DNA from: Sphingomonas sp. | GTDB lineage: Bacteria; Pseudomonadota; Alphaproteobacteria; Sphingomonadales; Sphingomonadaceae | Direction: 5' to 3' | Assembly: GCA_013001055.1 (NCBI GenBank) | Contig: JABDNH010000004.1 | Span: forward strand, 24,529-88,528 | Length of the DNA: 64,000 nucleotides | Shown: one piece after another, positions 13,932 through 23,007 of the stretch | Layout: every line of letters starts with the position of its first letter | Numbering within the stretch: position 1 is the stretch's first letter | Program-made: the position numbers and the translations under genes | Notes under the pieces: model-generated | What the model saw: only the letters and a program-made list of their open reading frames with translations | Databases searched by the model: none | Told to the model about the DNA's origin: nothing

Positions 13932-15348
13932 TCCATGCCCTTCCGTCGCGCTGTGTGAGTTCGGTCGAGCCTGTAGGGCCCCAGCCGCCCGATGTGTAGG
14001 CCTCGGGCGTCATATCGGCGCGCAGCCACGACGCCCTGAGGCCATCGATGTAATTCCATTGCGCCTCAACCTCGTCGCGGCGCACGAACAAGGTTGGATC
14101 GCCCTCGATCAGGTCGAGCAGCAGCCGTTCGTAGGCGATGCGGCGGCGATAATCGCTGAACGCGCCTTCCATGGTGACGTCCAGCGGCACTTCGCGAAGG
14201 CTCATCCCGCCGCGGTCGAGCCCCGGCGTCTTGGTCATCATCTTGATGCGGATATTTTCTTCGGGCTGGATCGAGATGATCAGCTCATTGGGCTGCATCT
14301 GCCCCGACATATTGCCGAAGATCGAATGCGGGACGCATTTGAACTGGATGTAGATCTCGGTCTTGCGCCGCGCCATCGCCTTGCCGTGACGCAGGTAGAA
14401 CGGCACGCCCGCCCAGCGCCAATTGTCGACATGGGCCTTGAGCGCGATGAAGGTTTCGGTTTTGGACGTCTCGCCCAATTCCTCCAGATAGCCTTCATAT
14501 TGTCCCAGCACGACATCGGACTTGGCTTTCTCGGCGTCTATTTGCCGAAGCGACTGCAGCACCTTCACCTTTTCCGCGCGCACCGCGTCAGGATCGTAGG
14601 CCGCAGGTGGCTCCATTGCGACGAGGGCCAACAGCTGCAGCATATGGTTTTGGAGCATGTCGCGCGAAGCACCGGCCGTATCGTAATAGCCCGCGCGCCC
14701 TTCCAGACCGACCGTTTCGGCAACCGTAATCTGGACGTGATCGATGTGCGACGCATTCCACACCGGCTCGAGCAGCGAATTGGCAAAGCGCAGCGCCAGA
14801 AGGTTCTGCACCGTTTCCTTGCCGAGATAATGGTCGATGCGGAAGATACGGCTTTCGGGGAAATGCGCGGCGACCGCGTCATTAATCTCGCAACTGCTTT
14901 GAAGATCGGTCCCGATCGGCTTTTCCAGCGCCAGCTTTACCGTTTGGCCGGCCAGCCCCACTGCCGCCAGATTGTCGATTGCCGCCCTGAACAGGCTCGG
15001 CGCGGTAGACAGGAAAATCGATACACCCTCATTGACGTCGATGTGATCGGCGAGTTCCTGATAGCCATGGGGCGTCGTCACATCGACCGGCGAGTAGGTG
15101 ATACGTTGGGCAAAGCGCCGAGCCGTCACTTCGGAAAAGAAGTCGTCGGGCAGATGTTCGCGCAGCGCCTCCACGGCAGTCTCGCGAAACTCGTCGTCGC
15201 TCAGCTGCGAGCGCGCCGTTCCGATAATCTTAAGCTCGTCGGGAAGCAGGCCATCGGCGTGAAGCCCGTACAAGGACGGAATCAGCATGCGACGCGACAG
15301 GTCACCCGTCGCCCCGAACAGGAGCAGCGTCTTGGACTGTCCGATCAT
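13924..15348 (-). CDS. zwf: glucose-6-phosphate 1-dehydrogenase
   Basis: LFGATGDLSRR NADP motif and RIDHYLGKE active-site motif. Confidence 0.92.
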   Translation of the reverse strand: MIGQSKTLLLFGATGDLSRRMLIPSLYGLHADGLLPDELKIIGTARSQLSDDEFRETAVEALREHLPDDFFSEVTARRFAQRITYSPVDVTTPHGYQELADHIDVNEGVSIFLSTAPSLFRAAIDNLAAVGLAGQTVKLALEKPIGTDLQSSCEINDAVAAHFPESRIFRIDHYLGKETVQNLLALRFANSLLEPVWNASHIDHVQITVAETVGLEGRAGYYDTAGASRDMLQNHMLQLLALVAMEPPAAYDPDAVRAEKVKVLQSLRQIDAEKAKSDVVLGQYEGYLEELGETSKTETFIALKAHVDNWRWAGVPFYLRHGKAMARRKTEIYIQFKCVPHSIFGNMSGQMQPNELIISIQPEENIRIKMMTKTPGLDRGGMSLREVPLDVTMEGAFSDYRRRIAYERLLLDLIEGDPTLFVRRDEVEAQWNYIDGLRASWLRADMTPEAYTSGGWGPTGSTELTQRDGRAWND

Positions 15349-16838
15349 CGGGCCTCCCGCGCCTTCAGCGCCTCGTTATGGCTCGGAAAGTTCATCGCGC
15401 AGCGCTCCAGGAAATCATCGATTCTGTACATATCGGGGAGATGCACGTCTTCGCCCGGCTTTTCCAGCTTTTGCGGGAAATTCCCGTAGCCGCCGAGCAG
15501 GCAGTGCCAACTTACGGCGTTGTAATATCTGGCGATATCCTGCCGCTGTACCTCGAGGGTCAAATCTTGGCGCGTGAACCAGGCTGTCATTATTCCCTTG
15601 AGGCTGGGCGAAAGATTTTCATGCGCCGCATTGTCGCGCCAATAGTCGGTGTCGCGGCGTAGCTGGCAGCGATAATGCGCGACGATATAGTCGCGGATGC
15701 CTTCATAACGCGCCGCGATACTGTCATTAAAAGGTCCGCGCGCCTCGGGCCCCAGCCCGTCCGTGTCCACCGCTTTGATGAATTGCTCGACCGTGACAAG
15801 CACGATGTGCAGTGCGGTGGCCTCCAGCGGTTCGAGAAAACCTTGCGCCAGGCCGATAGCAAGGCAATTGGCATTCCAGCTCTTGTCAAGCCGCCCGCAG
15901 CGCATCTTGAGATGGCGTGCCTCGACATCTTTGCCGACGCCCAGCGCAGCGCGCAACTCGGTCTCGGCGGCGTCGGCTTCGATATATTTCGAGCTGTAGA
16001 CGTAGCCATTGCCGGTGCGGTTGGTGAGCGGGATTGACCAGCGCCAGCCCGCGTCCATGGCGATGGCCCGGGTTGCGCATTCGGGCCCGCCTTGGGCGAC
16101 ATCGGTGGGCAGGACCACCGCGCTGTCCGCGAACAGATTGTCAGCAAAGGAGACATGCGCTCCGCCCAATGCCTGTTCGGCGATCAAGGCACGAAAGCCC
16201 GAGGCATCGATGAAGAAATCGGCTTCGTGGCGACCGCCGTCTTCGCCAATCAGCGCCGCGACCTCGCCGTCATCCGTCATTTCGACCGAGGCGATCCTGG
16301 TATCGACCCATTCGACCCCTCGCTTCGTCGCGATGCCCTTCAGGACTTCGCCAACCTTGTGCGCATCGAAATGGTAGCCGTAGCTGACTTCAAGGGGGAA
16401 ATTCTCGGGGTTTAGCGGCGCAAGCTTGCGCTCCGCCAGCAGCCCGGGGAACAGGAAGTCATCGGGATGCGCCTGCACATCGAGGCCCGATCGCCGCAGC
16501 CGCGCGGCCCGGAAAAGCTGCCCCGCGCTGTGCCCGTCGAGGGCGGTCGGGAAGGGATGAAAGTAACGCTCGTAGCCGGGCTTCTGCGACCAGTGCTCGA
16601 ACTGGATGCCGACCTTGTAGGTTGCATTTGCGGCGGGCATCCACTCGGCCTCGCTCACCCCGATCGTATCGAAAAAGACCTTGAGTTGCGGGGTCGAGCC
16701 CTCACCTACCCCGACAATGCCGATCTCGCTGCCTTCGATCAGCCGGATCATGGTTCCCGGCCAATGATGCTGGAGCAGGCAGGCTGCCATCCAGCCTGCC
16801 GTCCCGCCGCCCAAGATCGTAATACTGCTCGGTGTCAC
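15345..16838 (-). CDS. flavin-dependent tryptophan-halogenase-family protein
   Basis: GGGTAGW FAD motif right after the GTG at 16838. GVGEGSTPQLKVFF contains the Lys position of PrnA-type enzymes. WRWSIP matches the WxWxIP motif. ATGA overlap with zwf. The track's 566-aa version adds an Arg-rich, non-homologous N-terminus. Confidence 0.8.
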   Translation of the reverse strand: MTPSSITILGGGTAGWMAACLLQHHWPGTMIRLIEGSEIGIVGVGEGSTPQLKVFFDTIGVSEAEWMPAANATYKVGIQFEHWSQKPGYERYFHPFPTALDGHSAGQLFRAARLRRSGLDVQAHPDDFLFPGLLAERKLAPLNPENFPLEVSYGYHFDAHKVGEVLKGIATKRGVEWVDTRIASVEMTDDGEVAALIGEDGGRHEADFFIDASGFRALIAEQALGGAHVSFADNLFADSAVVLPTDVAQGGPECATRAIAMDAGWRWSIPLTNRTGNGYVYSSKYIEADAAETELRAALGVGKDVEARHLKMRCGRLDKSWNANCLAIGLAQGFLEPLEATALHIVLVTVEQFIKAVDTDGLGPEARGPFNDSIAARYEGIRDYIVAHYRCQLRRDTDYWRDNAAHENLSPSLKGIMTAWFTRQDLTLEVQRQDIARYYNAVSWHCLLGGYGNFPQKLEKPGEDVHLPDMYRIDDFLERCAMNFPSHNEALKAREAR

Positions 16839-17038
16839 TGCGCCTTCAGGCGAATGGCATAGCCGCCGCCGGGAGCCATGTTGAGGGACAAAACATCGCG
16901 CGCCGTCACGTCGCGCTGTTCGATCACGATACCGAAGCGCGTCGGCCCGAGATAATGCGAAGTGTCGGCATCGCGGTAGATGCGCGCGCGGTGATGATGC
17001 TCGCCGCGCTGGCCATGCTTCGCGTGGGGGAAGAACAA
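16835..17038 (-). CDS. hypothetical 67-aa protein, possibly coupled to the halogenase-like gene
   Basis: Its stop (16835-16837) overlaps the GTG at 16838 (GTGA). No recognisable domain. It competes with the long N-terminal extension reading frame. Confidence 0.35.
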   Translation of the reverse strand: MFFPHAKHGQRGEHHHRARIYRDADTSHYLGPTRFGIVIEQRDVTARDVLSLNMAPGGGYAIRLKAQ

Positions 17039-17132
17039 CCCGCATAAGCGTGCTTGCGCCTTCTGCGGCGTTGCAATATGGTTAACCGAGGTTAGTTTTT
17101 CGAAGCGTTGGCCTTTTGCTGGGGGACGTGCG

Positions 17133-17981
17133 TTGAGCGCACCCGATATCTTTTTGTCTTACAGCCGCGAAGATCGCGCGGTGGCGCAGCGCGTCAGCCA
17201 AGGGCTTGAACGCGAAGGCTTCTCGGTATGGTGGGATGCCGAATTGCATTCGGGCGAAACATTTGACGAGATGATCGAGCATAATTTGCGCCGGTCCAAG
17301 GCCGTCATCGTGCTCTGGTCGCCGCGCTCGGTCGGATCGCGCTGGGTCCGCGCCGAAGCCACACAAGGCGATCGCCGCAAGAAGCTCCTGCCCGCCGTGA
17401 TCGAAAGCTGCGAATTGCCGATCGCATTCGAACTCCACCACACGTCGGACCTGTCGAAATGGGATGGCAATCTATCCAACCCGGACTGGCTCGGGCTTGT
17501 CACTGATATCCGCCGGTTGATCGGCTTCAAGGTCGGCGAAGACGCGGGGGCGACCCATACGCCATTATCGGGTCATCGCCCTGCACCCGACATGGCCGCG
17601 CACGAAGCGCGCCCCGATGACCAGACCCAGTTCTTCACCGAGGTTGGCGCACCGATTGAAGAAAGCGAAGTGCACGTGCTGGAACTGGCCGATGGGGACC
17701 AGCGGGTGCGAAAACATGTCGTCGGGCCGCTGGGGCTGAAGATCGGGCGCGCGGCGCCTTCCGACCTGATCCTGTCCGACCCGCGCGTTTCCCGGACACA
17801 TTGCCTGGTCGAAATCAAGAATGACGAGCTTGAGGTATCCGACCTCAATTCGACCAACGGGACCTATGTGGACAATGAGCGTGTGGAAAAGACCATGCGG
17901 ATCCCCGTTGGGTCGGAATTGCGTGTCGGCAAGAGCCGCCTCATTCACGAACTACGCTCGCGCGCCGACCTTCAGGCGTAG
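17133..17981 (+). CDS. TIR domain - FHA domain fusion protein
   Basis: TTG start preceded by GGGGGA. TIR_2-like DIFLSYSREDR, VIVLWSPRSVGSRWVRAE (Glu codon 17355-17357). C-terminal FHA with the GR, SRTH and STNGT signature. Confidence 0.8.
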   Translation: MSAPDIFLSYSREDRAVAQRVSQGLEREGFSVWWDAELHSGETFDEMIEHNLRRSKAVIVLWSPRSVGSRWVRAEATQGDRRKKLLPAVIESCELPIAFELHHTSDLSKWDGNLSNPDWLGLVTDIRRLIGFKVGEDAGATHTPLSGHRPAPDMAAHEARPDDQTQFFTEVGAPIEESEVHVLELADGDQRVRKHVVGPLGLKIGRAAPSDLILSDPRVSRTHCLVEIKNDELEVSDLNSTNGTYVDNERVEKTMRIPVGSELRVGKSRLIHELRSRADLQA

Positions 17982-17989
17982 GCTACTTC

Positions 17990-20056
17990 TTAACGTTCGG
18001 TCGAAGCGCTGTTGTTGCGCAGGAATACGAGATATTGCCGCGTCTGCTCTGCCTGCCGGATCAGCCGATCGGCCTCCGCACGCGTGGACACACCGCGCAT
18101 CGAATTGCTCAGCGTTCCCAGATAATCCTCATACCCTTCGGCACGCTGCGCGTTGGCGCGGCGTGTATCGTATCCGGCCCTTTGTGCATCCGAAGCGCTG
18201 CGCCCCGGACGCCGTCCGCGCGCCATGCGTTGCACTTCGTTGGCAAGCCCCTCTCCCTCGCGGACAATCGCGGCGAGGCGATTGCGCTGCGCAGCGGTCA
18301 CTCCGGCAGAGGCGCTTGCCACAGGCGCTGCAGAAGGCTGCGAGAAGGTCGATGCGGGAGCAGTCGAACTCGGCTGCTGCGCGGCGGTCTGTGTGCGCGC
18401 AGGTTCTTCGGCCGGCTGCCGTTCGACCCTGCGTTCGGGGGTCTCGGTGGGCGTGACATCCTCGGCAACTTCTTCGCTATCGACGTCGTCTTCGGGCACG
18501 ATGCTGTTGCCGTCCTCCAGCGTGACCTCCTCCATGCCCTCGTCGTCGATTGCGGTCGGTGCGGGTTCGGCCTCGGCGAACGGGTCTTCGCTCGGGCGCA
18601 GCCATAAGAAGACGACAATCGCGAGCAGCGCTGCGACCCCCGCCGGCACCAACCATTTGGGACGCTTGGCGGGTATATCCTTGCCCTTGGCGGCGGCCAC
18701 CGGTGTCTTGTTCCCCTTTCCGGGCGGATCGTCATTGGTCGGCGCTTCGTTCGCGATCGCCTTGCCACGCGCTGCAGCGATCGCAGCCGCAGCCGCTTTC
18801 TCTCCTTCGTCGGGCCAGGGCAAGGCAGGCTTCTTTTTCCAATCGCTACGGTCGGGGCCTGATCCGAGCGCTTCACCAGCCATGTCGTCGATATTCGGCG
18901 CGTTCGCCAGATCGGCCTGGGTGGGATCGCTTTCGTCCGCCGGCGGGACATCTGCCGCAGCGTCCGATGGCCCGTCGCTTTCTTCGGTCGCACCATCACT
19001 CTGCGCATAGAGCCCCGCGCGCGTTTCCCCGGCATCCATCTTGAAGGTGGCGTCCTCAGGAGCATCGGGTACGGGGTCGGGATCGGGCGCGGGAAGCACG
19101 GGCTGGATCTCGTGCGGATCGTCCATCATGGGCGCGACCCGCGTCGCTTCGCCATCGTCGTTCGGCTCAATAGCGCCGGAGAACAAGCGCAGCCACCGCG
19201 CCACCGATTGCGGTCGATCGCCCGGGCGGATGACCATCGCGGCATCGATCGCCTTGAGGAAATCCTGCGAGTATCCGGGCAAATCGCGCTGTGCCAATGG
19301 CGTGTCGTCCTCGCCGTGCATGCGCTCGAGCACCTCGAGTGGTTTTTCACCCGTTACGCATTCGTAAAGCACGACGCCAAGCGCATAGATATCGGTCCAC
19401 GGGCCCTGGTCGTAGGTCTTCACATATTGTTCGATCGCCGCATATGGCGGTGTGTGAAAGGTGACCTTCGTGGAGGTCGCATCGCCGCTTTCGAAGCGCG
19501 CCGAACCGAAGTCGATCAGGACGGCGCTGCCATCCTCGCGCACGATGATGTTGGCAGGTTTGATGTCCCGGTGGAGCACCCCGACGCGGTGCGCGCGTTC
19601 GAGTCCCTCGGCGATTGGCAGAATCACATTCGAGAGGGTGCCTTCGTCGAATTTCTTGCCGTCTTTCAACTGCTTGGACAAGGATTGCCCGTCCTCGAAG
19701 TCCATTACCATGTAGGCGGTGCCGTGGATTTCGAAGAGGCTTCGTACCGATACGATGTTGGGGTGGCGCGACGGCGTGGAGAGGTTCCACAACAGTTTTG
19801 CTTCTTCGACGAATTTCTTGAGGCCGAGCGCGTGGACTTCCTCGGCATCGCTGTCGACCGGCACCACCGTATCGTCTTCCTCGCGCTCCGAAATGGCGCT
19901 GGGGAAGTATTCCTTGATGGCGACAAGCTCGTCGAAATAGATGCCGCGGCCACGATAGACGATGCCGAACCCGCCGACGCCGATCACGTCCTCGAGCCGC
20001 CATTCCCGCAGCACCGTGCCGACCGGCAGCGCCTTGTTGCTATAGGCTTTGCTCAT
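17990..20056 (-). CDS. Hanks-type Ser/Thr protein kinase, single-pass membrane protein with about 200-aa extracytoplasmic C-terminal region
   Basis: GVGGFGIVY, VAIK, HRDIKPANI, DFGSA, PPYAAIEQ. Acidic/Pro-rich linker. TM WLVPAGVAALLAIVVFLWL (18599-18655). Confidence 0.9.
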   Translation of the reverse strand: MSKAYSNKALPVGTVLREWRLEDVIGVGGFGIVYRGRGIYFDELVAIKEYFPSAISEREEDDTVVPVDSDAEEVHALGLKKFVEEAKLLWNLSTPSRHPNIVSVRSLFEIHGTAYMVMDFEDGQSLSKQLKDGKKFDEGTLSNVILPIAEGLERAHRVGVLHRDIKPANIIVREDGSAVLIDFGSARFESGDATSTKVTFHTPPYAAIEQYVKTYDQGPWTDIYALGVVLYECVTGEKPLEVLERMHGEDDTPLAQRDLPGYSQDFLKAIDAAMVIRPGDRPQSVARWLRLFSGAIEPNDDGEATRVAPMMDDPHEIQPVLPAPDPDPVPDAPEDATFKMDAGETRAGLYAQSDGATEESDGPSDAAADVPPADESDPTQADLANAPNIDDMAGEALGSGPDRSDWKKKPALPWPDEGEKAAAAAIAAARGKAIANEAPTNDDPPGKGNKTPVAAAKGKDIPAKRPKWLVPAGVAALLAIVVFLWLRPSEDPFAEAEPAPTAIDDEGMEEVTLEDGNSIVPEDDVDSEEVAEDVTPTETPERRVERQPAEEPARTQTAAQQPSSTAPASTFSQPSAAPVASASAGVTAAQRNRLAAIVREGEGLANEVQRMARGRRPGRSASDAQRAGYDTRRANAQRAEGYEDYLGTLSNSMRGVSTRAEADRLIRQAEQTRQYLVFLRNNSASTER

Positions 20057-20070
20057 CCTATGTCCCCCGA

Positions 20071-20099
20071 TTGGCAGAATTGCATAAACATGGGTTAGT
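20071..20099 (+). promoter_or_regulatory. candidate sigma70-type promoter for the PP2C gene (TTGGCA-N17-GTTAGT)
   Basis: Hexamers read by eye, with 17-nt spacing. About 30 nt upstream of the ATG, which is preceded by AGAGGGGG. Confidence 0.3.
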
Positions 20100-20127
20100 T
20101 TCTAGTCTGCGATCCTGAAGAGGGGGT

Positions 20128-20847
20128 ATGGTCATGCGCTTCCTGAGTGCCGGGACGACCCATGTCGGACTGAAACGCCAGCATAATGAGGACGCGCTGC
20201 TCGACGCGCGCGAGCGTGCCTTATGGGTGGTCGCCGACGGTATGGGCGGCCATGAAGCGGGCGACGTTGCCGCCAAGATGGTTGTCGATCGCCTCGCGCA
20301 GGAATTGTCTGAAGGCTCGGTCGAGGACCGTCTGGAAAAGGCCTCGGCCATCCTCGAGGAGGTAAATGGCGACCTTGTCACCATGGCGCAGGGGGGCGCA
20401 AAGAGTGGCACAATCGGCACCACGGTCGTCGGGCTTGTCATCGACGAGGCGCAATTCGGGATATTCTGGGCAGGCGACAGCCGCGCTTACCGCGTGCGCG
20501 ATGGCGCCATTGCCCAATTGACCCGCGATCACAGCCTGGTGCAGGATCTGGTCGAAGCCGGCATGCTCGCGTTCGAGGATGCAGAGCACCACCCCGACGC
20601 CAATGTCGTGACCCGCGCGGTGGGCGCCAAGGAGATGCTCAAGGTCGCCACGCGCACCGGCGATACGCGATCCGGCGACATTTTCGTGATCGCCTCCGAC
20701 GGGCTCACCAAAGTGGTGGAGAAGTTCGAAATCCTCGACATCGTGACCAGCCGCAATCCCATGCAGTCGGTGGATGCATTGCTTGAGATGACGTTGCAGC
20801 GCGGCGCACCCGACAACGTCACCATACAAGTAATCCGCGTCGGCTGA
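20128..20847 (+). CDS. PP2C-family Ser/Thr protein phosphatase
   Basis: GLKRQHNEDA, VADGMGGH, ASDGLT, GAPDNVT metal-binding motifs. The start may be the ATG at 20134. Confidence 0.85.
   Translation: MVMRFLSAGTTHVGLKRQHNEDALLDARERALWVVADGMGGHEAGDVAAKMVVDRLAQELSEGSVEDRLEKASAILEEVNGDLVTMAQGGAKSGTIGTTVVGLVIDEAQFGIFWAGDSRAYRVRDGAIAQLTRDHSLVQDLVEAGMLAFEDAEHHPDANVVTRAVGAKEMLKVATRTGDTRSGDIFVIASDGLTKVVEKFEILDIVTSRNPMQSVDALLEMTLQRGAPDNVTIQVIRVG

Positions 20848-22917: not shown

Positions 22918-23007
<90 letters not shown>

Follow-up and report, generated by a model that had tools for sequence, protein, structure and literature searches.

A 64,000-nucleotide stretch of contig JABDNH010000004.1 from Sphingomonas sp. 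(hereafter the window) encodes a protein that fuses a TIR domain to a phosphothreonine (pThr)-binding type of FHA domain, and its gene lies beside those of a membrane Hanks Ser/Thr kinase and a PP2C phosphatase. Judged by gene order in related genomes, the three genes form one conserved module, and we consider it probable that this module is a phospho-switch controlling an enzymatically active TIR domain, in other words a phospho-gated signal generator. The three open reading frames (ORFs) are present where a first-pass annotation, made from the sequence alone, had placed them:

17133..17981, + strand: TIR-FHA fusion gene, 282 amino acids (aa) (ORF; Pfam TIR_2 and FHA)
17990..20056, - strand: PpkA-like Hanks Ser/Thr kinase gene, 688 aa (Pkinase; nearest solved relative PpkA, 5hnv)
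20128..20847, + strand: PppA-like PP2C phosphatase gene, 239 aa (PP2C_2; match to PppA, 6jkv)

The TIR-FHA and kinase genes are convergent, with stop codons 8 bp apart, and the kinase and PP2C genes point away from each other across a 71-bp spacer. The coding strand alternates from one gene to the next, and the three do not make up one operon.

Both halves of the fusion protein are matched significantly by Pfam models, TIR_2 at E=2.4e-23 (residues 6-110; 83 bits against a cut-off of 28) and FHA at E=1.6e-18 (residues 203-266). The AlphaFold2 (AF2) model, with a mean predicted local distance difference test score (pLDDT) of 81, consists of two well-folded domains and a disordered linker, and the linker varies in length across the alignment of homologues, being shorter in the clade of the window than in most relatives. 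The protein is divided as follows:

17133..17528, + strand: TIR domain, residues 1-132 (AF2 pLDDT mostly 87-96; phmmer matches to solved TIR NADases)
17355..17357, + strand: codon of Glu75, the predicted catalytic Glu (translation; AbTIR alignment; 121/121 homologues)
17529..17654, + strand: disordered linker, residues 133-174 (AF2 pLDDT<50)
17664..17960, + strand: FHA domain, residues 178-276 (Pfam; AF2 beta-sandwich with pLDDT ~95; Foldseek)

All of the top 50 Foldseek matches of the whole model are FHA structures, and the relatives of the TIR domain were therefore taken from a sequence search. Using phmmer against solved structures, the TIR part matches TIR NADases including AbTIR and SARM1 (top match 7uxr, E=4.8e-6), with W71 and E75 of the SRWVRAE motif aligned to the W and E of the AbTIR DWTNYE motif (8g83, 7uwg). 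We take the Glu of that AbTIR motif to be its catalytic residue, E208. W71 and E75 are present in 121 of 121 homologues, within a stretch (LWSPRSVxSRWVRAEAT) that is invariant among them, and the protein also has weak ThsB_TIR and PADLOC ThsB matches. The FHA domain carries the full set of pThr-binding signature residues, G205, R206, S220, R221, H223, N242 and G243, each likewise found in 121/121. Thus the two domain calls of the first-pass annotation, its placing of Glu75 at the catalytic position and its reading of the FHA signature are all upheld.

The kinase matches Pfam Pkinase at E=2.3e-36, and the phosphatase matches PP2C_2 at E=7.6e-16 and PP2C at E=3.1e-12. When compared with all solved structures, both are nearest, by a wide margin, to enzymes of the PpkA/PppA/Fha1(TagH) pathway of the type VI secretion system (T6SS): the kinase to PpkA (5hnv, 2.3e-54; next kinase 2e-21) and the phosphatase to PppA (6jkv, 1.7e-52 over residues 4-237; next, PstP, 2e-33). 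From these matches, the two enzymes are specifically of the PpkA/PppA type. They also look active, as first thought, with VAIK, HRDIKPAN and DFG motifs in the kinase and with the ADGMGGH, GDSR, SDGL and PDN motifs of the phosphatase aligned to those of the solved PppA. The predicted layout of the kinase, with a single transmembrane (TM) helix, is:

19181..20056, - strand: kinase catalytic domain, residues 1-292 (VAIK, HRDIKPAN and DFG present)
18599..18655, - strand: single TM helix, residues 468-486 (Kyte-Doolittle peak 2.45)
17993..18598, - strand: extracytoplasmic C-terminal region, residues 487-688, putative sensor (topology predicted)

The TM call marks the sole 19-residue span of the protein with a Kyte-Doolittle value >1.6. 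Most positions of the catalytic domain are at least 95% conserved in 29 orthologues, which range in length from 625 to about 900 aa, and the domain is 74-81% identical across genera, compared with 42-50% for TIR-FHA and 47-54% for PP2C (tblastn). The outer region contains an acidic/Pro-rich stretch and a weakly conserved, probably helical tail of ~100 aa, and tblastn matches residues ~591-687 in many loci at 34-57% identity.

In the H1-T6SS of Pseudomonas aeruginosa, reversible pThr marks control an assembly step, and the PpkA/PppA pair acts through an FHA protein. The module shares with this pathway a kinase that spans the membrane once, with its C-terminus predicted to lie outside the cytoplasm, and an FHA protein that is predicted to act as reader and substrate under reversible pThr control of an assembly step. 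It differs in that the FHA domain is fused to a TIR domain, in that no Pfam domain, vWA or other, was recognised in the outer region of the kinase, and in its setting: T6SS genes were found neither among ten large ORFs scanned in the window (all housekeeping; picked among the biggest, with most other ORFs outside the scan) nor among the co-conserved families of 40 related loci. The likeness to the Fha1/PpkA/PppA triad drawn by the first-pass annotation therefore amounts to homology for the kinase and phosphatase, and the third part, the FHA protein, departs from it by its TIR domain.

The PpkA/PppA-like character of the two enzymes could also mean that the TIR domain mediates interactions and has no catalytic role, the triad being an orphan type VI-style pathway that controls something else, for instance secretion or a process at the envelope. 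Adaptor roles are known for some bacterial TIR proteins, and one source annotates a homologue (P0068) as a type VI component. We find this very unlikely, since the catalytic-type Glu and its surrounding motif are invariant in all 121 homologues, the scans just described uncovered no T6SS gene, and the partnership with SLOG-fold proteins described below points to nucleotide chemistry. A TIR domain with predicted enzymatic activity under the control of the kinase and phosphatase remains the reading pursued here.

Gene order was compared across the 80 best-matching loci out of 300 detected in genomes; 39 of these 80 encode the full fusion (40 loci with Sphingomicrobium flavum), and the other 41 match the TIR domain only, at 55-60% identity. 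A protein search yielded 1899 homologous 90% clusters, and TIR_2 and FHA occur together in all of the best 120, which were looked at for domains; the named ones belong to Sphingomonadales and include Sphingomicrobium, Croceicoccus, Novosphingobium and Altererythrobacter. According to tblastn, the kinase adjoins TIR-FHA in every locus whose contig runs past the TIR-FHA gene (37/37), and PP2C is present in every locus whose contig reaches its position (32/32). The flanking genes differ, with zwf, edd, halogenase, TonB and thiolase genes not kept as neighbours. Loci of the same TIR subfamily without an FHA domain have neither enzyme beyond one weak, unrelated kinase match (PP2C 0/41; kinase 1/41), so that kinase co-occurrence is 37/37 for FHA-bearing versus 1/41 for FHA-less TIR genes (Fisher p=1.5e-21). 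TIR-FHA, kinase, PP2C and SLOG-type proteins are the only co-conserved families in the 40 loci. The layout at the S. flavum locus (TIR-FHA -> <- kinase, PP2C -> <- TonB) has the same minimal form as the window, and its flanks, like those of other loci lacking a SLOG gene, are ordinary metabolic and translation genes. Synteny and co-occurrence both bear out the first-pass proposal that the three genes belong together. In two related loci, a second, divergent TIR gene (33-34% identical; L027:795-1181 (-) and L037:3429-3821 (-)) precedes TIR-FHA by a few kb and is encoded on the other strand.

The intergenic regions of the module contain a repeated motif:

17046..17132, + strand: region upstream of TIR-FHA, with a box TTGCAA-N16-TAGTTT containing GGTTAGTTT (17090-17098)
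20057..20127, no strand assigned: kinase/phosphatase spacer, with TTGCAT-N17-TAGTCT and GGTTAGTTT (20093-20101)

The 9-mer GGTTAGTTT occurs twice in the 64 kb, against 0.02 occurrences expected by chance, and precedes the TIR-FHA start by 35 bp and the PP2C start by 27 bp. These boxes may represent a shared promoter or operator that co-regulates both + strand genes; a consensus promoter and terminator scan of the intergenic regions called nothing, the TTGCAA-N16-TAGTTT box included. Across genera, the kinase-phosphatase spacer carries a conserved motif, AATCGCAYGAA followed after ~12 nt by ATTGCTAGTCT (loci L001, L007, L009-L011, L013, L020, L021, L023, L025-L033, L036, L037 and L052), and the regions upstream of TIR-FHA are without comparable cross-genus conservation. 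The alternating strands and the lack of a single operon would suit three functionally unrelated genes that are neighbours by accident. This explanation is exceedingly improbable: it is contradicted by an arrangement kept across genera while the flanks change and by the co-occurrence statistics, and GGTTAGTTT is found upstream of both + strand genes and nowhere else in the window.

Alignments of the fusion protein and of the kinase each revealed one conserved candidate phosphosite:

17610..17639, + strand: acidic-T165-Q-F-[YF]-T169 motif, candidate phospho-acceptor and FHA ligand (conservation in 121 homologues)
19130..19159, - strand: juxtamembrane [ED]-D-D-E-A-T305-R-[FVI]-[FY]-A, candidate autophosphorylation and FHA-docking site (29 orthologues)

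The first site reads DDQTQFFT in the window and D-[ED]-x-[ED]-[RA]-T165-Q-F-[YF]-T in the family, with T165 kept in 106 of 121 homologues, the following Q in 99, F in 94, Y or F in 104 and T169 in 98, and with acidic residues at -2 to -6. In the kinase, residue 305 is Thr in 29/29 orthologues and the next residue Arg in 28/29. Both sites share one pattern of an acidic run, Thr, Gln or Arg, and two hydrophobic or aromatic residues. Hanks kinases favour acidic upstream residues and FHA domains favour a hydrophobic pT+3 residue, and the shared pattern resembles both preferences. The Thr/Pro sites of the linker (GATHTPLSGHRP) proposed by the first-pass annotation have no conservation in the alignment; T165 is the conserved candidate instead. 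An exhaustive protein search recovered one homologue, P0244 (291 aa, 50% identical), in which the FHA domain precedes the TIR domain, representing either an independent fusion or a permutation. It keeps an EQTRIMT sequence directly before the FHA domain despite the swapped order, which suggests that the Thr motif and the FHA domain form one GarA-like cassette. Most representatives with two matching stretches in that search, considered as extra FHA fusions, were rejected as tandem TIR-TIR proteins.

The nearest structural relatives of the FHA domain by Foldseek are GarA, OdhI and FhaA (E ~1e-10, 31-32% identity; probability 1.00 for the FHA domains of GarA, FhaA and EmbR). GarA and OdhI are substrates of Hanks kinases and are switched off by intramolecular binding of the pThr to their own FHA domain. 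They resemble the fusion protein in having a conserved Thr motif just upstream of the FHA domain, here a candidate acceptor, and differ from it in having no enzymatic domain and in regulating enzymes of the tricarboxylic acid cycle and glutamate metabolism, whereas the cassette is here joined to a TIR domain. The module might accordingly work with opposite polarity, pT165 closing the FHA domain on its own tail and switching the protein off, so that PP2C would be the activator. The structural similarity and the position of the Thr motif, also in the domain-swapped P0244, fit this possibility. We nevertheless regard it as fairly unlikely, because T165 lies ~15 residues from the first FHA strand, compared with about 30 in GarA, which makes cis binding sterically less obvious, and because TIR enzymes generally become active on assembly and are not kept active as monomers. 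We favour pT165 as a probable activating mark of the proposed phospho-gated TIR enzyme.

Two further systems offer partial parallels for such a design. The FHA domain also matches, by Foldseek, that of the Bdellovibrio protein DgcB, in which an FHA domain is likewise fused to a second-messenger synthase, and the DgcB structures 6hc1 and 6hbz have the FHA domain bound to its own phosphorylated tail peptide. The output of DgcB is a GGDEF domain (cyclic di-GMP), not a TIR domain, and we know of no PpkA/PppA pair adjacent to it. In SARM1, whose TIR domain is detectably similar in sequence, a fused regulatory domain keeps the TIR NADase inactive until assembly switches it on, and phosphorylation also modulates the activity. 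SARM1 differs in being controlled mainly allosterically, through its ARM domain (by nicotinamide mononucleotide and nicotinamide adenine dinucleotide, NAD+), and in lacking an FHA domain and a dedicated kinase/phosphatase pair.

A further gene, encoding a SLOG-like domain with invariant GHR, GAD, LPF..Y..DF and WDGxxGxGGT motifs, is adjacent to TIR-FHA in 36 of the 40 related loci, a count that includes two genes cut at contig ends. In type A (12 loci) the domain stands alone, in a protein of ~250 aa encoded directly downstream of TIR-FHA. In type B (11 loci; ~560-620 aa) it is joined to a helical module whose four predicted TM helices pair up as two hairpins, annotated by some sources as DUF4231 or as "SMODS and SLOG-associating 2TM effector". 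Type C (13 loci; ~590 aa), encoded upstream of TIR-FHA, has the order TPR-S, SLOG-like domain and class III nucleotide cyclase, and is detected by a profile built from types A and B at 4e-9 to 3e-5. It has a weak PADLOC match to the Pycsar cyclase PycC, and the other SLOG partners have none. In the type C cyclases (L004:4027-5790, L021:4041-5831 and 11 more loci) a Thr replaces the Asn of the GxxVNxAxR motif (YGTEVTVAARIE).

There is no Pfam or PADLOC model for this partner family. Its weak Pfam matches are to YAcAr, YpsA, DprA, nucleoside deoxyribosyltransferase and STALD, all of the SLOG superfamily or related to it, and a type B model (pLDDT 86, predicted template modelling score (pTM) 0.87) matches ShosA, DprA, TM1055 and the Moco carrier protein by Foldseek, domain against domain, with a probability of 0.90-1.00. 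These four, TM1055 as a LOG-family protein, are presumably all members of the SLOG superfamily. We therefore treat the partner domain as an unclassified SLOG family, for which the modelled fold gives support and the sequence evidence is weak. The SLOG fold binds ADP-ribose-derived signals in Thoeris ThsA and in TRPM2. With a SLOG-fold neighbour in 36/40 loci, the option that the TIR domain is a signal-producing enzyme gains support, and by analogy its product would most likely be an ADP-ribose-derived signal.

Partner type follows the TIR-FHA tree (neighbour-joining, without support values), and partnerless loci are dispersed over it, which points to repeated loss or relocation of the SLOG gene. 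In the window no SLOG, Macro, SIR2 or similar gene adjoins the TIR gene, and no SLOG-like partner is present at the S. flavum locus. None of the top 120 type B homologues lies on the contig of S. flavum or on that of P0003, the closest NCBI relative, which is weak evidence against a distal SLOG gene there. Of all the loci fetched, that of S. nitratireducens (L029) has the kinase most similar to that of the window (81%), and in it a type B gene stands between TIR-FHA and the kinase. The window lineage probably lost or moved an adjacent SLOG gene, and did so long ago, as the TIR-FHA proteins of the window and of S. flavum share only 55% identity. Since both loci have the minimal form with key residues intact at this level of divergence, that form appears to be maintained by selection, and the three-gene core, on this comparison of sequences, must serve some function even where no receptor adjoins it.

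Such a function could be exerted by the TIR domain as the effector itself, with kinase-triggered NAD+ depletion causing growth arrest (abortive infection or stress dormancy) and with no diffusible signal or receptor in this genome. The window and S. flavum lack a SLOG partner yet keep all catalytic residues, and CBASS, Pycsar and pAgo systems include NAD+-depleting TIR effectors (10.64898/2025.12.03.692087), which supply a precedent. This alternative is unlikely in view of the SLOG partner in 36/40 loci, including the nearest clade of the window in the tree, and of the scattered SLOG-less loci, which suggest repeated loss or relocation over a distinct design; a receptor could also be encoded elsewhere in the genome. 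We therefore retain signal production as the probable role of the TIR domain.

Outside Sphingomonadales, the same TIR subfamily occurs as tandem TIR-TPR arrays followed by a type-B-like protein in 12 of the 41 loci with the TIR domain only. These TIR-(FlgO/TolB_N-like)-TPR arrays, with TIR domains 55-60% identical, were seen in Gammaproteobacteria, Steroidobacteraceae, Caulobacterales and Parvularculaceae metagenome-assembled genomes (L039:1876-10216, L044 with six TIR genes, L043, L045, L047, L063 and L067). They often end in a SLOG-like + DUF4231 membrane protein of 670-710 aa, a partner for which PADLOC has no model, and together look like relatives of type III Thoeris.

The switch would operate as follows. 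An envelope cue would activate the membrane kinase, which would autophosphorylate its juxtamembrane acidic-ATR[FVI] site at T305. The FHA domain would dock on pT305 and recruit TIR-FHA to the kinase, which would then phosphorylate the matching acidic-TQF[YF]T site at T165. Intermolecular contacts between FHA domains and pT165 would cluster the TIR domains and activate them. Clustering is required for the NAD+-cleaving or cyclising activity of TIR domains. The NAD+-derived product, predicted to be ADP-ribose-based, would be read by SLOG proteins where these are present, and PP2C would reset the switch. In the window lineage, which has no adjacent receptor, the output would be read by a receptor encoded elsewhere or would consist of NAD+ consumption itself.

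Several observations weigh against this scheme. The related loci are a sample, the best 80 of 300, with genes called by a custom ORF script in high-GC DNA, and PADLOC gave only generic matches for the three proteins (TIR; mad6 and PD-T4-6 for the kinase; PDC-M21C). With respect to the phospho-relay, residue 165 is Ala in 15/121 homologues, the T305+3 residue of the window is Ala where Phe or Tyr is usual, the distance of 15 residues between T165 and the FHA core is as compatible with the presence as with the absence of cis binding, and the AF2 model gives no confident orientation of the TIR domain relative to the FHA domain (pTM 0.47). With respect to the output, the SLOG-like domain has weak Pfam matches, the best being YAcAr at 0.0011, and the Foldseek matches of type B are at E 0.02-0.1; a SLOG domain, moreover, need not be a receptor and can be an enzyme, as in the LOG family. 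The SLOG-like profile found no match in a six-frame translation of the window (best E=1.1, 64 kb), and with no partner within those 64 kb the signal step of the scheme is borrowed from relatives. The first-pass statement that the window contains no effector or T6SS genes is supported by this profile result for the whole window and by the ten housekeeping ORFs, and holds within that scope.

Among known systems, the presumed output most resembles Thoeris, in which a TIR synthase (ThsB) is paired with a signal-binding effector: SIR2-SLOG in type I, multi-TIR and SLOG in type III, and SLATT in type VII. The relatives of the window similarly pair a TIR domain of catalytic-type Glu with an adjacent SLOG-fold protein, which in some of them carries a fused DUF4231/SLATT-like membrane module. 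They differ from Thoeris in their input, here a kinase, phosphatase and FHA domain, in one of their outputs, a nucleotide cyclase, and in a context that is chromosomal and housekeeping, with no adjoining effector gene in the window. In a systematic Thoeris survey that lists 29 types of effector, neither the text nor the supplements refer to a kinase, a phosphatase or an FHA domain. We classify the module as TIR-to-SLOG nucleotide signalling with a new, explicit phospho-input. No description of a TIR-FHA fusion, or of a TIR protein controlled by a kinase and phosphatase, was found in the full-text literature searched, with an earlier mention possible in the 2015 SLOG/SLATT paper. That paper, by Burroughs et al., is said to have defined SLOG and SLATT by comparative genomics.

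The module is set among housekeeping genes: glk-edd-pgl-zwf, a tryptophan-halogenase-like gene, TonB, thiolase, tRNA-Ser and a two-component system, from which it does not differ in GC content or third-position GC. The further large ORFs scanned in the window encode transporters, LptF/G, SerA, PurA and AcrB. The tryptophan-halogenase-like ORF (15345-17045, - strand) has a Pfam match that starts at residue 75 and an Arg-rich stretch of 70 residues before it; its annotated start is probably too far upstream. Its stop overlaps the zwf start by 4 nt, and a halogenase-like gene is near the module in S. flavum (L081) too. The tRNA-Ser gene (anticodon CGA; 22918-23007, - strand) lies between the thiolase and short-chain dehydrogenase genes, and no integrase or other sign of a mobile element was seen near it.

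The first-pass annotation had presented the module as a candidate for signalling or defence, and the second half of that title lacks contextual support given the housekeeping neighbours, the absence of a full-length copy among 72,556 plasmids and 50,697 phage records, and the high conservation. A parts list of TIR, SLOG and SLATT-like membrane module does fit the logic of Thoeris and speaks for defence; an assignment to a known defence system was attempted, and none was possible from the generic PADLOC matches. On balance, a non-immune role in envelope or stress signalling is slightly more likely than phage defence, as favoured by the slow evolution of kinase and TIR domain, clade-wise inheritance, housekeeping neighbours, lack of mobile copies and cyclase output. 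A more far-reaching version, which we put forward as a tentative possibility only, is that a PpkA/PppA switch has been redeployed to gate a chromosomal, order-wide TIR messenger pathway that is not primarily antiviral, its product being read by a SLOG family wired to nucleotide cyclases or four-TM proteins, and the whole forming a housekeeping envelope or stress cascade built from "immune" parts.

Little is understood of what switches bacterial TIR proteins on, and the trigger of Thoeris is described only as "phage infection". In the module reported here the predicted input is explicit and open to manipulation, consisting of a kinase, a phosphatase, a pThr reader and two conserved candidate phosphosites amenable to mutation. 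If the proposed switch is correct, it would be the first bacterial TIR protein under reversible Ser/Thr phosphorylation and would link the phospho-switch of type VI secretion to NAD+-derived signalling; in relatives, a two-tier messenger cascade would result, with a TIR signal coupled to the synthesis of cyclic nucleotides. Because the module is strongly conserved and lies among housekeeping genes, with no mobile copies found, it may also represent a non-immune role for TIR proteins in an abundant environmental order of bacteria.

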